Of a stretch of 64,000 nt of DNA, positions 59,401-63,419 are shown one piece after another. How positions within the stretch are numbered: the stretch's first letter is position 1; every line of letters begins with the position of its first letter. The notes beneath the pieces were generated by a model. The model saw only the letters and a list, made by a program, of their open reading frames with translations, did not search any database and was not told the origin of the DNA. This DNA is from an uncultured Methanoregulaceae archaeon (GTDB taxonomy: Archaea; Halobacteriota; Methanomicrobia; Methanomicrobiales; Methanospirillaceae), in contig OY970061.1 in the NCBI GenBank assembly GCA_963705255.1, positions 2,368,001 through 2,432,000 on the forward strand. Direction: 5' to 3'. Position numbers and translations under genes: made by a program.

Positions 59401-59671
59401 TGTCCAACCATGCGCCACAGTGTACTTATTCTTAACCGGATGTTTGGCTTTTTATAGTGTGGCACCATGGGGTGAAAATAACCGGGGGTGGAAGGAGGGG
59501 CTGAAAACTGATGCGCGGGTATCCCATAATCCACCTATCTGTTCCTCTCAGTCCCGGTGCAGCCCCGGCAAAAGTCCCGGCATCATTTCACCGGCCCCAC
59601 TTCTCTATCGTGTCGATCTCCGCTATGAACTCCTTCAGCCGTTCGCGTTCCGGCCCGAACCATCGTTGTTT

Positions 59672-60126
59672 TTACTCCTGCCCCTTCGCCCACCGCACCA
59701 GCACCGCGAGGACCGCGACCAGCACCATGTCGAAGATTTACTTCGTAAATCTTCTCCTCTTCGAATTTCGCTTTGCTCAATTCTTCGGAGATCGAAGAAT
59801 TCTTGCGAATTCGGTCGAAGAACTTCGTTCAGGAGAAGATTCTTCTTCTCCTGTCTCAAGTCTGATGACTTTCGACATTCTGATGACCCTCAGCATTCTC
59901 CTCCTCCAGGTCCTGATGGACCTATCGGATGTCGGAGAAACCTGAAGGTTTCTTCTTTTCCTCCAGGTCTGATGACCTGTCGGACAAAAAAAACGACCGG
60001 CATGTGCGCCGAACCCCTGGACACGACCAGCACCATGTCGAGCACCATCCCGAGGGCCAGCCCCGCAGCGATGCCGACGATGAGGCGCCTGATCGTGCGG
60101 TCTTCGAAAATGGGAATACCCGAATA
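59672..60126 (-). pseudogene. Small 2-TM membrane protein, copy A, interrupted by hairpin-element array; no clear start codon
   Basis: IFEDRTIRRL...HMPVVFF | VVLVAVLAVLVRWAKGQE; 198 bp in frame once the 257-bp insert is removed. Confidence 0.7.
59728..59984 (-). mobile_element. Array of 5 double-hairpin miniature elements (tandem and nested)
   Basis: Absent from paralog C; parses into units T..GA-stem-loop-stem-GA, 3 nt, GAAG..CTTC, GAYN. Confidence 0.75.
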
Positions 60127-60215
60127 ACCCGGATTTTAACAGCAATTTTCAGCAAAAAAATGATGACGGGGAAGAGATAATACCTACACAGAAAAGTTAT
60201 GGGAGAGCGGGTGCG

Positions 60216-60512
60216 ATGGCTGGACGGACATTGAAGAAGAAGATCCAAGATTCTATTGTCTCAATCCTGACCCGGTATGATGCCGAGCGGATCGCCATCT
60301 TTGGTTCCTATGCCCGGGGAGAAGCCGGCGAAAACAGCGATATTGACATCCTTGTAAGGTTTGCCCGGCCAAAAAGCCTGATCCAGATTGTACAGATCGA
60401 AGACGAGATCAGGAAGTTCATCCATATGAAAGTCGATCTCGTAACCGAGAAAGCCGTCAGCCCCCATCTTGCCGGCACCATTTTCCGCGATGAAATGGTG
60501 ATCTATGGATGA
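60216..60512 (+). CDS. MNT nucleotidyltransferase (antitoxin)
   Basis: IFGSYARGE...SDIDILV, KVDLV. Confidence 0.9.
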   Translation: MAGRTLKKKIQDSIVSILTRYDAERIAIFGSYARGEAGENSDIDILVRFARPKSLIQIVQIEDEIRKFIHMKVDLVTEKAVSPHLAGTIFRDEMVIYG

Positions 60513-60660
60513 AACCGGAAGACCCGGCGTACCTCCATCACATGCCTGATGCTATTATCCATTTCGAAGATTTGATCCAAATCTTCTCGTCTTCAGGGTT
60601 CTGATAAACCCCTCAGACATTGAGAAATTTTCCAAGGGAATCACATCTGCCTCTTCTCTT
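60509..60660 (+). pseudogene. HEPN/DUF86 toxin remnant, interrupted and truncated
   Basis: MKPEDPAYLHHMPDAIIH|IEKFSKGIT after removing the 56-bp insert; ATGA overlap with MNT. Confidence 0.7.
60562..60617 (-). mobile_element. Single double-hairpin miniature element (56 bp)
   Basis: tct GA ggggttt atca gaaccct GA aga cga gaagatttg gat caaatcttc gaaa. Confidence 0.75.
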
Positions 60661-60693
60661 AAGGACCGCCCGCTTGAACGCGCCGGTATCACG

Positions 60694-61104
60694 CTAAATA
60701 CGTTCAGCGAGATCCCGGGTTGAATAGATCTTCAGGATATCCTGTTTAAGAAAATGCCGGTCTTCTGTCCAGATACCGTCGATACCAAGGGAAATGCCGA
60801 CAGCAAGGAACACAGAATCGTTTTCATCCACTGTTTCCATGACCTGCATTGCATGATTAAACTCGGCTGAGAACTCTTCAAAAGGAACAAGGACGACACG
60901 GTTAAGCAGGGTTTGCATAAGGATATCAAAGTCCTGTTCAGAGATTTTTGCCTTTTTCAGAAGGTAGGGCCGGTGTTTGTACAACTCGGTCTCAATATAA
61001 TCCGGGGCGTAAAATGAGAAGGACTTATGCAGGATAATTTTCCGCGAGACTGAATCCCGAAGGAGATCAGCCATGATCCGGTTGGTATCTATGACAAGTT
61101 TCAT
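60694..61104 (-). CDS. PIN-domain toxin (VapC-like)
   Basis: LVIDTN, DENDSVFLA, IWTEDRHF. Confidence 0.85.
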   Translation of the reverse strand: MKLVIDTNRIMADLLRDSVSRKIILHKSFSFYAPDYIETELYKHRPYLLKKAKISEQDFDILMQTLLNRVVLVPFEEFSAEFNHAMQVMETVDENDSVFLAVGISLGIDGIWTEDRHFLKQDILKIYSTRDLAERI

Positions 61105-61153
61105 CGGGTTCTGCCTTTGGCGTCAGGAAATAGTCTTAGGCTGCACTGCTTTT

Positions 61154-61414
61154 TTAAGAGAGATCTGCTTTCCTGGCGGGGCTTCGCGATGCTTTACCCT
61201 TGTAATGTTTCAGGATTCCCGCCTTCGCCTTCTTATCGAGAGCCATGATATCATCCTCAGTAAGCTCGCTCTCCCGGGTCATGGCATTCAGGAGCGCAAT
61301 TTTTTTGGCGTAATCCTCGATTGCCCTTCGGGCGATCTCACTCCACCGGACCTCATTGTGAGCTTTTACAATCTTGTAGACATCTTCCGGGAGCGACAGC
61401 GTCATGTTTGGCAT
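61154..61414 (-). CDS. RHH-type antitoxin
   Basis: MPNMTLSLPEDVY...EVRWSEIARRAI upstream of PIN gene. Confidence 0.75.
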   Translation of the reverse strand: MPNMTLSLPEDVYKIVKAHNEVRWSEIARRAIEDYAKKIALLNAMTRESELTEDDIMALDKKAKAGILKHYKGKASRSPARKADLS

Positions 61415-61423
61415 AACATCACC

Positions 61424-61439
61424 ACACATATCTATGTGT
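61424..61439. promoter_or_regulatory. Putative TA autoregulation operator ACACATA-TC-TATGTGT
   Basis: Inverted repeat between minus-strand TTAAATA and the antitoxin start. Confidence 0.55.
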
Positions 61440-61540
61440 ATTCACATATTTAAGAGGATTGGGGCCAGATAGGTGGCTGCAATAATTTTTCTGATAAAAG
61501 AGTCACGATTTTCCCGCGTCCAAAAGCCCTTTGGATTAAC

Positions 61541-61737
61541 TTACTCCAGCCCGTTCGACCACCACACCAGCACGGCTAGGACCACTATGAGAACTAATAA
61601 AAAATAACCGGCATGTACGCCGAACCCCTGAACACAACCAGCACAATGTCCAGGATCATCCCGAGGGCCAGCCCCGCAGCGATACCGACGATGAGGCGTT
61701 TGATCGTGCGGTCTTCGAATATTGTTACATCCACCAT
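61541..61737 (-). CDS. Small 2-TM membrane protein, copy C (uninterrupted; one T short in a homopolymer)
   Basis: MVDVTIFEDRTIKRLIVGIAAGLALGMILDIVLVVFRGSAYMPVIF(L)LVLIVVLAVLVWWSNGLE. Confidence 0.7.
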
Positions 61738-61861
61738 GTTCTTTACTGAACGTGGATCGTGTTATGGTTTTGGGAGCGGGGTGGCATCGCCAATAGCCCT
61801 GAGGAGAATGCCCCCCGTTTTCAGGGCTTTGTCATGGCGGGGGCCCGGACCGAGGAAACCG

Positions 61862-62080
61862 TCACACAAGTTCACCGGGATCAATACCGGCATCCTTGCA
61901 GATCTGTTTTACGATCTTCGGGTGCAGGATCTTCCCGGCATGATCCGGTACGGTTACCCTGACACCAGCATCGTTTTTAAAAATTTTGTGACTCCCACTT
62001 TGCCGTACGCAACTGAACCCTTTCCTTTTCAGCAGGGTGATGATCCGTTCAGCCGGGATCCGGGGGAGTCTTTCACTCAT
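61862..62080 (-). CDS. hicA: HicA-family toxin
   Basis: GFSCVRQSGSHKIF, VTVPDH. Confidence 0.9.
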   Translation of the reverse strand: MSERLPRIPAERIITLLKRKGFSCVRQSGSHKIFKNDAGVRVTVPDHAGKILHPKIVKQICKDAGIDPGELV

Positions 62081-62301
62081 ACCGTGACATCGACTGTGGT
62101 TAAATTGATCAGATGCGCCTGGGGGATCTTCTCTCCGGAATTGATGCGATCATCGAGATGGAGGCGGATGGCATCCCGGATATTGTCAAGGACTTCTTCA
62201 TAGGTCTCTCCCTGTGCATAGCATCCCTGGAGTTCCGGGCAGAATGCGGTGTAGCCATCTTCATCTTTTTCGATTACTACGGAAAAACGGAAATTGTTCA
62301 T
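62077..62301 (-). CDS. hicB: HicB-family antitoxin
   Basis: YTAFCPELQGCYAQGETYEE. Confidence 0.9.
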   Translation of the reverse strand: MNNFRFSVVIEKDEDGYTAFCPELQGCYAQGETYEEVLDNIRDAIRLHLDDRINSGEKIPQAHLINLTTVDVTV

Positions 62302-62467
62302 ACAGTAACCCCTTATGCGTCCTCTCGTGAATATATCGTATCGGCCAGTGCAATAACTTTTTGATTGCCTGCCATGAGTTGATGGCAGCCAGGGAGGGGA
62401 TTTGGGTCTGGGCCGGCCCGGTCCCCGGGGACGAGATTCATCCTTGGTACCGAAAGGGAATCCCACC

Positions 62468-62876
62468 TCACTCCAGCCCCTTCGCCCACCGCGCCAGCAC
62501 CGCGAGGACCACAACCAGCACCAGATCGAAGAATTCTTGCGAATTCGGTCGAAGAACTTCGTTCAATCGAAGGCGTTCCGCCTTCTCGTGTCTCAAGTCT
62601 GATGACTTTCGACATTCTCCTGCCTCGGGTCTTATGACCCTCAGCATTCTCCTCCTCCAGGTCCTGATGGACCTATCGGATGTCGGAGAAACCTGAAGGT
62701 TTCTTCTTTTCCTCCAGGTCTGATGACCTGTCGGACAAAAAAACGACCGGCATGTGCGCCGAGCCCCTGAACACGACCAGCACGATGTCGAGCACCATCC
62801 CGAGGGCCAGCCCCGCAACGATGCCGACGATGAGGCGCTTGATCGTGCGATCTTCGAATATGGTATAGTCTGTCAT
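62468..62876 (-). pseudogene. Small 2-TM membrane protein, copy B, interrupted by hairpin-element array
   Basis: MTDYTIFEDRTIKRL...HMPVVF | VLVVVLAVLARWAKGLE. Confidence 0.7.
62524..62735 (-). mobile_element. Array of 4 double-hairpin miniature elements (tandem and doubly nested)
   Basis: Units of 55, 57, 50 and 50 bp sum to the 212-bp insert. Confidence 0.78.
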
Positions 62877-62996
62877 GGTTATTTCCTTACTTATCTTGCG
62901 TCGTCCTGGTTCCAGAAATTTCTTGCGGGGTCCGGCTTTTTTATTTCCATCACATCCAGACACCGGACTGTGCCGGTGCACGGGTCACCATGTATC

Positions 62997-63419
62997 TCAG
63001 CCATCCCCATTCCCGCTCCCGAACACGTCCGGGAAATATTCCCGGATCCGGTGGCGTTCCCGCTCGTTTAGCCCGCGGAGCTTCCGGCCTGCCAGCCCTA
63101 TGATGAATGCCGCCGCATCGTACCGGTCCGCGAACGGGCTGATCATCGGCCGGCCCGAAGGCCCGGGCAGGTAGCAGAGATAGAAGGAGGATGCCCTCCC
63201 CGGTACCGGATGTGGGGCGAAGAACCCAGGGGGTTCTTCTTCTCCTCGAGGTCTGCTAACCTCTCGGACATAGAGAACTGTCTCCCGTACTGCCGTGATA
63301 CCGGTGACTGGTGAACTGTGCTGGATACGGAGGAGCGCCACGTCTGAACAGGGATTTGGTTCCCGAGGTTGTCCCTCCCTGTTCCGGCTGGCATCCGGCC
63401 GTTTCGTTTCCATCTTCAC
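62997..63419 (-). CDS. Hypothetical protein carrying an in-frame 54-bp element
   Basis: ORF stays open; reads ETVLYAHPVPG without the insert. Confidence 0.55.
   Translation of the reverse strand: MKMETKRPDASRNREGQPREPNPCSDVALLRIQHSSPVTGITAVRETVLYVREVSRPRGEEEPPGFFAPHPVPGRASSFYLCYLPGPSGRPMISPFADRYDAAAFIIGLAGRKLRGLNERERHRIREYFPDVFGSGNGDG
63215..63268 (-). mobile_element. Single double-hairpin miniature element (54 bp)
   Basis: tcc GA gaggtt agca gacctc GA gga gaa gaagaaccc cct gggttcttc gccc. Confidence 0.72.

Follow-up and report, generated by a model that had tools for sequence, protein, structure and literature searches.

The block of repeats described here lies near the right-hand end of a 64,000-nt window, the whole stretch of DNA analysed, which corresponds to G000:C1:2368001-2432000 of the source genome (G000, a closed 2.60-Mb contig of 54.6% G+C from an uncultured Methanoregulaceae archaeon) and which also encodes McrA. 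The genome is that of a Methanoregula, and a P-type ATPase encoded in the window shares 98% identity with one from a Methanoregula MAG. At this locus a small membrane-protein gene on the minus strand is interrupted by an array at 62524-62735 that starts at a codon boundary. The 5' part of the gene (62736-62876) begins with an ATG at 62876, and its frame enters the array and stops inside it; the severed 3' remainder (62468-62523, minus strand) holds the second hydrophobic segment and the stop. Five paralogues of this ~65-aa, two-segment membrane protein, which has no Pfam match, were found in window 59600-63000 and at genome 2055.5 and 2433.2 kb, and three of the five hold an array at the same codon. 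Array-less paralogues are present at window 61594-61737 (minus strand), an empty site with a frameshift in a T-run, and at genome 2433.2-2433.4 kb, where the ~65-aa gene is intact. By eye, from their translations, the neighbouring ORFs of these paralogues include toxin-antitoxin-like genes (HicA/HicB-, PIN- and nucleotidyltransferase-like). The A-run beside the array has 7 residues here (62737-62743) and 8 in two paralogues (e.g. 59986-59993), and, on a reading by hand, removal of the array would restore the C-terminal frame in the two 8-A paralogues but not at the 7-A locus 62524-62735. The difference in A-run length, the T-run frameshift at 61594-61737 and a marker completeness of 89.5% for a closed contig suggest homopolymer assembly errors, of which the 7-A run may be one.

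Each unit of the array is a non-coding sequence of 50-57 nt that consists of a head of 1-4 nt ending in TC, a hairpin A whose outer stem (GAAGAA/TTCTTC) is conserved and whose inner stem varies, a pyrimidine linker, a hairpin B, and a tail that pairs back to the unit's own linker across a small internal loop. The loops of both hairpins are mostly TGAT-like, and head and tail share just a near-palindromic TCGA-like core rather than terminal inverted repeats. With the units read head-to-tail on the plus strand (the original prediction had read the minus strand), the block parsed exactly as U2[U3[U4]] + U1, the segments measuring 23+18+50+32+34+55 = 212 nt and all lying on the plus strand. U2-left (62524-62546) comprises a 4-nt head, the 5' arm of hairpin A, the loop and the 3' arm as far as the split, without its last TTC, and U3-left (62547-62564) comprises a head and hairpin A up to the equivalent split point. 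Innermost is U4 (62565-62614), a complete 50-nt unit with a two-hairpin fold that scored 25.5 bits (E 3e-8) with a covariance model. U3-right (62615-62646) and U2-right (62647-62680) each supply the TTC that closes hairpin A, the linker, hairpin B and the tail, and U1 (62681-62735) is a complete 55-nt unit that scored 58.0 bits and has an identical copy at window 59930-59984. The covariance model that found U1 and U4 in place was built from 43 other copies.

Both U2 and U3 are split between the two TTC triplets in the 3' arm of hairpin A (plus strand xTTC^TTCTCC), so that the split bond, TTC^TTCTCC, lies 3 nt inside the arm; on the minus strand this is GAA^GAA, with the sequences GAA^GAATTC in U2 and GAA^GAAC in U3. 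The junction boundaries are fixed and do not slide, because the flanking bases differ at each junction, and reading of the sequence revealed no target-site duplication at either nesting of the block. A duplication of TTC or TC at the nests was considered and rejected, as it does not agree with the empty and occupied sequences. When the halves were rejoined in silico, a perfect hairpin A was obtained, with a stem of 9 bp for U2 and 7 bp for U3. Restored U2 scored 46.7 bits with the family HMM, whose scores for 20 joins displaced by 1-6 nt reached at most 38.7 bits. For restored U3 the score was 20.3 bits and for the best of its 20 shifted joins 20.5 bits; the U3 parse is thus less decisive by score and leans on its hairpin and on an uninterrupted U3-like unit in the same genome (2364111-2364160). 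The tail of U2 abuts U1 with zero spacer (62680/62681). The original prediction is confirmed in that the block is U1 + U2[U3[U4]] with equivalent split sites, that removal of the inner units restores a perfect outer hairpin, and that U2 directly abuts U1.

Iterated nhmmer searches of the source genome converged on 275 matches (187 at E<1e-3) in 137 clusters, of which ~100 represent intact copies of the family, and the covariance model returned at least 105 matches. Further solitary members on the plus strand of the window lie at 60562-60617 (60.7 bits) and 63215-63268 (50.6 bits). Both hairpins covary, and an independent RNAalifold run gave compensatory changes in 8 of 13 pairs. Across 77 distinct sequences in a model-fitted alignment, 95.2% of cells were paired, compared with 80.5% after shuffling and at most 63% in slid controls, and double-change cells numbered 134 versus 30.4 in shuffles, with 0 of 500 shuffles reaching the observed value; these covariation figures are inflated by the kinship of the sequences and by the fitting of the alignment to the model. 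With a crude ORF set that spans 77% of the genome as the reference, 101 of 116 units were intergenic, and 49 of these 101 lie between convergent genes. Unit orientation was not biased with respect to adjacent genes (in tandem contexts, 12 versus 8 and 8 versus 10) or along the chromosome as a whole (67 on the plus and 49 on the minus strand), and the GC skew of the chromosome is weak. Modules of the two hairpins are shuffled among units: the A stems differ in 67 of 157 unit pairs whose B modules are at least 90% identical, and the B modules are less than 70% identical in 295 of the 440 pairs that share an A stem.

No Rfam match was obtained at the gathering score over the whole window, nor at E up to 1 over 59600-63400. 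Two known RNA classes were considered and rejected. For hammerhead or C/D-box motifs, suggested by the CTGATGA loops, the spacing is wrong and the GAAA and D boxes are missing by eye, and Rfam is empty. For an archaeal bulge-helix-bulge intron, inspection of the boundaries gave no exon-exon helix or bulge geometry, and the array truncates an ORF both here and in the sister genome described below.

The original prediction would have been contradicted by a 212-bp block that always occurred as one indivisible element; the block divides. A paralogous array at window 59728-59984 (plus strand) has the same U1/U2/U3 skeleton, with an extra U0 (59728-59789), a U4 (59831-59877) whose hairpin-A stem differs from that of the 62565-62614 copy, and a shortened right part of U3 (59878-59895). 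The third array, at genome 2055.5 kb, shares U1, U2 and U3 and has in addition two inserts, of which one lies in hairpin B. Simpler states were found in G090, a genome that is syntenic with the source genome and ~95-96% identical to it. Among its members of the small-gene family, one is empty (L134), one holds a lone, uninterrupted U2 of 57 nt and 61 bits (L138), and one holds a lone chimeric unit of 56.4 bits in which a U0-type hairpin A is joined to a U2-type hairpin B (L137); the single-unit copies in this genome also truncate the ORF, to 49 aa. With an empty site, U2 alone and a chimeric unit on record, the intermediates of array growth that the original prediction had called for, including U2 uninterrupted in a ~95% identical genome, do exist. 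Judged from these states, U2 was the earliest unit, U1 was added flush at its tail, and U3 and U4 were placed inside. The chimera in L137 equals the 59.7-kb array minus everything between two junction motifs, and this one case suggests that deletion between repeated junctions may be one source of chimeric units. Metagenome contigs, none of which spans the whole stretch, lose similarity exactly at unit boundaries (62523, 62582, 62615, 62651/2, 62687 and 62735/7), with the break at 62615 falling on the first base of U3-right; by eye, one contig has a U0-type end before 62523 and 0 mismatches over 62523-62625.

Nesting positions are also non-random across the source genome. All 15 large insertions seen in the HMM alignments follow model position 21. 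A scan of GAAG-initiated hairpins whose stem is cut short and followed by a new head gave 17 of 179 at offset 3, compared with 1-4 at each other offset, and 14 of the 17 were genuine by eye. With a stricter scan, a unit followed the truncated hairpin in 20 of 540 cases at offset 3, versus 10 of 4,576 over 12 other offsets, and 19 of the 20 offset-3 nests have a matching tail/TTCT right junction 47-109 nt downstream; this count is a lower bound, because the scan missed the U3/U4 junction of 62524-62735 itself. By eye, at least 12 distinct host/guest pairs share the TTC^TTCTCC bond, although the independent nesting events are fewer than the loci, since some nests are copies of composites (4, 3, 3 and 2 copies). 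The guests come mostly from a single subfamily, in which the hairpin-B half hardly varies. The exceptions to the common position are opposite-orientation nestings 3 nt away, on the other arm of hairpin A, and one insertion in hairpin B. Opposite-orientation units split one host type after GAAGAA at genome positions 620159, 620345, 1816812, 1697686, 1429262 and 1016506, and these six nests are probably copies of one old event. A delete-and-rescore procedure for nest positions was dropped, with 856 restored units for real sites versus 845 for controls, and 66 versus 129 after filtering; it is uninformative because of the tandem arrays and palindromic stems. The nesting is real and general, and growth by insertion is supported; nesting at one fixed spot marks the two-hairpin repeats as a probable family of mobile elements whose members insert into their own copies.

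Insertion differences between close genomes fall on the same bond. At genome 606.2 kb, a host that is empty in the source genome holds in G090 a 102-nt insert, composed of a standard unit and a different two-hairpin unit, at ^TTCTCC, and at 2588.8 kb a 124-nt composite lies in the source genome at ^TTCTCC of another host type and is missing from G090, so that both of the two clean host-element insertion differences share the position. Three further inserts of the source genome at 867.0-867.5 kb are missing from G090, one inside the loop of a G+C-rich hairpin unrelated to the units, the other two as single units in plain DNA. None of these five differences shows a target duplication, and the three at 867.0-867.5 kb have a junction ambiguity of 1-3 nt at most. 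In ten element-rich relatives, the nest junction pattern gave 5 matches in two genomes, compared with 0 for a reversed-pattern control, and four of the five were nests on reading (L172 in G067; L173, L175 and L176 in G079). One is three deep, in the congener G079, and another is a clean case of a U4-like guest within a host from a different genus. The covariance model found at least one unit match in 40 of 61 Methanoregulaceae genomes, with a patchy copy number: at least 105 and at least 93 in two congeners, 10 in a third and 0-1 in four others, and, in another genus, 19-55 matches in five genomes and 1 in a sixth. Among viral contigs, 13 loci fit the hairpin-A pattern and scored 16-31 bits with the unit model, at one copy each, and no autonomous parent was seen in these contigs. 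The arrays disrupt synteny between close strains and interrupt genes.

The flanks of the units point to what may guide insertion. Units outside hosts, too, tend to lie directly 5' of a pyrimidine motif (TYTCCC/TTCTCC): among structurally parsed units it was present at 21 of 61 unique right flanks, compared with 141 of 5,000 random positions and 0 of 67 left flanks, the right-flank counts not being independent even with identical 12-mers collapsed, as many flanks come from a repeated mosaic. The same motif occurs in every unit where hairpin A meets the linker, which could explain why units nest at one fixed bond without recognition of structure; the nest bond is one instance of the motif, so reading of sequence could suffice. 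Recognition of structure stays a live rival because of the abutting units (17 of 80 right flanks are the head of another unit, which the motif fails to explain), the insertion site of U1 itself, which has no pyrimidine motif, and the opposite-orientation and hairpin-B nests. The original prediction had combined two statements, and repeated insertion into or beside existing copies is upheld by the fixed position and by the G090 intermediates; the structure- or self-guided targeting that it attached to them may not be needed, since the motif could be enough.

A search for an enzyme that could move the units yielded no known transposase partner. Y1 HUH transposases (PF01797, RAYT/TnpA type) were found in 0 of 61 Methanoregulaceae genomes, the source genome included, with a control positive in 6 of 14 known genomes. 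The IS110 DEDD transposase (PF01548) was present in 13 of the 61 genomes and in none of G000, G079, G043, G067, G082, G089, G075, G034 and G051, and no serine recombinase was found. The Y2 HUH profile (PF04986) also gave 0 matches in the source genome, but its control was silent in 14 of 14 genomes. The lone Phage_integrase match of the source genome is an Xer-like gene (2540082-2540543) that is conserved across the family, including element-poor relatives, and among its multi-copy ORFs there is a lone transposase-like family, in 2 copies. TnpB, which does not follow unit copy number, was rejected as a partner: matches occur in 20 of 61 genomes, with none in the element-rich G079 and with element-poor congeners among the carriers; one of the three TnpB-type hits in the source genome is TFB, and the TnpB-type loci L167 and L168 have no unit-like ends (<10 bits with the unit model). 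Reverse transcriptase was rejected as the mover as well, the lone gene being a DRT4/6-type defence gene next to a pAgo fragment. No nuclease-like candidate occurred among the genes that lie between inverted units.

Other genes of the source genome were recorded in the course of this search. An ORF of ~255-270 aa with a Cas12f1-like TNB domain (2543446-2543637) lies ~3 kb from the Xer-like gene and also occurs in G043, G062 and G075; it is short for a TnpB and looks vertically inherited. The defence island at 314.3-317.6 kb contains the DRT4/6-type reverse transcriptase (E 1e-170) next to a short ORF with a Piwi domain; units flank a KilA-N protein close by. A three-copy ORF family of 167-215 aa (201320-201967, 2059538-2060041 and 2469243-2469746), with no Pfam match at E 1e-5, has units immediately upstream of each copy, and two of the copies lie in a ~3-kb segmental duplication.

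In their behaviour the units most resemble IS200/IS605-type or REP/RAYT elements, and in their site geometry integron attC; they do not belong to any of these, as the respective enzyme was not found. As with bacterial REP/BIME sequences, they are short, high-copy, intergenic and non-coding hairpin units in clustered mosaics with a patchy, lineage-specific copy number. Unlike REP/BIME, the archaeal unit has two hairpins and a variable stem, and its arrays consist of same-orientation units arranged head-to-tail or nested, inverted pairs occurring without being the rule, whereas the units of BIME clusters alternate in orientation according to the abstract of PMC2817692. Unlike REP-RAYT systems, the host is an archaeon and none of the 61 family genomes carries a Y1 HUH (RAYT) gene.

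Miniature elements derived from IS200/IS605 (PATE-type) occur in haloarchaea, and the units share with such elements the lack of terminal inverted repeats and target-site duplications, hairpins near both ends, and orientation-specific insertion by a short one-sided motif; on the minus strand, they sit 3' of a GGRGAR-like motif. They differ in having no cognate TnpA (Y1), TnpB-type loci without unit-like ends, and no chromosome-wide orientation bias. Integron attC sites are folded hairpins that recombine within the 3' arm, a few nucleotides from the stem base, and like them the units have conserved outer stem boxes with a variable centre, arrays that grow at one site, and reshuffled modules. 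Unlike integrons, the units come with neither an integron integrase nor attI nor cassette genes, and they are dispersed in 137 clusters; exchange between two attC sites would yield tandem rather than nested units. Like MITEs, the units are small, non-autonomous, multi-copy and sometimes within genes, but they have no terminal inverted repeats, no target-site duplications and no parent IS in the source genome. Element-in-element nests at equivalent positions are also produced by the nested group II introns of Methanosarcina and by twintrons, in which the homing site lies inside the element's own copies; those introns are kilobase ribozymes with or without a reverse transcriptase, whereas the units here are ~55 nt and the lone reverse transcriptase is of DRT4 type.

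The reading that we favour, and consider reasonably probable, is that the repeats are a REP/BIME-like selfish element of archaea that inserts 5' of a pyrimidine motif which it carries itself. The block would then be a pile-up of non-coding, non-autonomous selfish elements of 50-57 nt of the Methanoregulaceae, inserted as whole units in a single orientation without target duplication, with a preferred site directly 5' of the pyrimidine motif (TTCTCC, TYTCCC). Such insertion would leave a host hairpin that still closes around its guest, giving Russian-doll nests, and landing flush on the ends of existing units would give head-to-tail arrays. Chimeric units and shuffled hairpin-A/hairpin-B modules would then arise where recurrent junction motifs recombine or the DNA between them is deleted. 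A dedicated breaking-joining enzyme would presumably move the units, and the motif, not the fold, would be what is read at insertion. It is possible, if doubtful, that this mover is a DNA breaking-joining activity outside the known transposase families, reading a hairpin foot or motif that the units carry themselves, supplied either by a new enzyme or by a housekeeping enzyme that has been co-opted, for instance the lone Xer-like recombinase or a topoisomerase.

Under an alternative that we regard as rather unlikely, a recombinase or nuclease-ligase would recognise folded hairpin A, as single-stranded DNA or as a cruciform, and act at a fixed distance from the stem base, the pyrimidine motif merely occupying the position of exchange, much as integron integrases act on folded attC. 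The fold of hairpin A is indeed kept while its inner stem varies freely, the cut lies 3 nt from the stem base in the 3' arm across hosts with very different stems, one polymorphic insert occupies the loop of a G+C-rich hairpin unrelated to the units, insertions also concentrate at the ends of existing units, and the loops of both hairpins are mostly TGAT-like. Against these points, sites outside hairpins that have the pyrimidine motif are used as well, no Y1 HUH enzyme occurs in any of the 61 genomes, and the sole tyrosine recombinase is Xer-like and common to element-poor relatives. Cleavage by Xer-type recombinases takes place at the spacer borders, which does not match a cut near the outer end of an arm. 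The archaeal dif site consists of 11-bp arms and a 6-bp spacer, according to the accessible portion of PMC2958812.

Ongoing transposition might be dispensed with altogether if a few ancient composites had been copied by segmental duplication and gene conversion, so that the shared position reflects descent or homology-driven copying. Several nests are in fact copies of one composite, the three arrays in the small-gene family descend from one by duplication, one host type has a U4-like guest in two genera, and the A/B shuffling speaks for frequent recombination between units. We nevertheless judge this quite improbable: at least 12 different host/guest combinations share one bond, the two strain-specific inserts differ in content and sit in two host types, solitary units are present or absent in unique DNA, copies among congeners range from 0-1 to ~100, and the host homology around the site extends over just ~20-30 nt, with variable stems. 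It is very improbable that selection maintains the units as structured RNAs with a function or as elements of transcript ends (stabilisers or terminators), in which nesting would be tolerated as the fold survives. Compensatory changes in both hairpins and the enrichment between convergent genes (49 of 101 intergenic units) agree with such a role, but orientation is unbiased with respect to flanking genes (tandem counts of 12 versus 8 and 8 versus 10), congeners have near-zero copies, Rfam gives no match at E up to 1, and units interrupt a gene. A tolerated parasite fits better than a strand-specific RNA, because the copy number is patchy and the units are mostly intergenic and without orientation preference.

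Small hairpin repeats are well studied in bacteria. Full-text literature searches, to the extent that the texts were accessible, returned no description of such repeats in Methanoregulaceae, and they are not covered in the accessible portions of a 2026 survey of archaeal IS elements (PMC13343696) or of a 2024 review of prokaryotic MITEs (PMC10969869). In that review the word "nested" occurs 0 times in a term search, and its available part does not name Methanoregulaceae among the archaea listed. The selfish-element family described here is an unusually clean natural record of spread, with one bond, no target duplication, intermediates in a sister genome, and the tested transposase classes missing, and it turns the question of what moves REP-like elements without RAYT into a concrete search for one enzyme. 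Should the mover prove to be an activity outside the known transposase families, the units would constitute a self-seeding, transposase-less mobile system specific to archaea, with nested and tandem arrays and modules reshuffled at one point.

Other repeats accompany the units in the source genome. A second, unrelated two-hairpin unit of ~47 nt repeatedly lies directly after U4-like tails (genome 2055.6, 794.47, 867.1 and 1694.2 kb) and is also present in the 102-nt insert of G090, and it may travel jointly with the U4-like unit as a ~100-nt composite. A mosaic of ~300-500 nt and of variable content occurs at many loci (e.g. 233.4, 254.0, 1026.9, 2190.5, 2199.9, 2209.1, 2244.3 and 2577.6 kb), with no conserved flanking gene, and one of its copies has as its base a G+C-rich hairpin whose counterpart in G090 is unoccupied. 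Mosaic blocks of ~735 nt (622307-623042) and ~259 nt (869445-869704) are likewise present in the source genome and missing from G090, and both adjoin A-runs.
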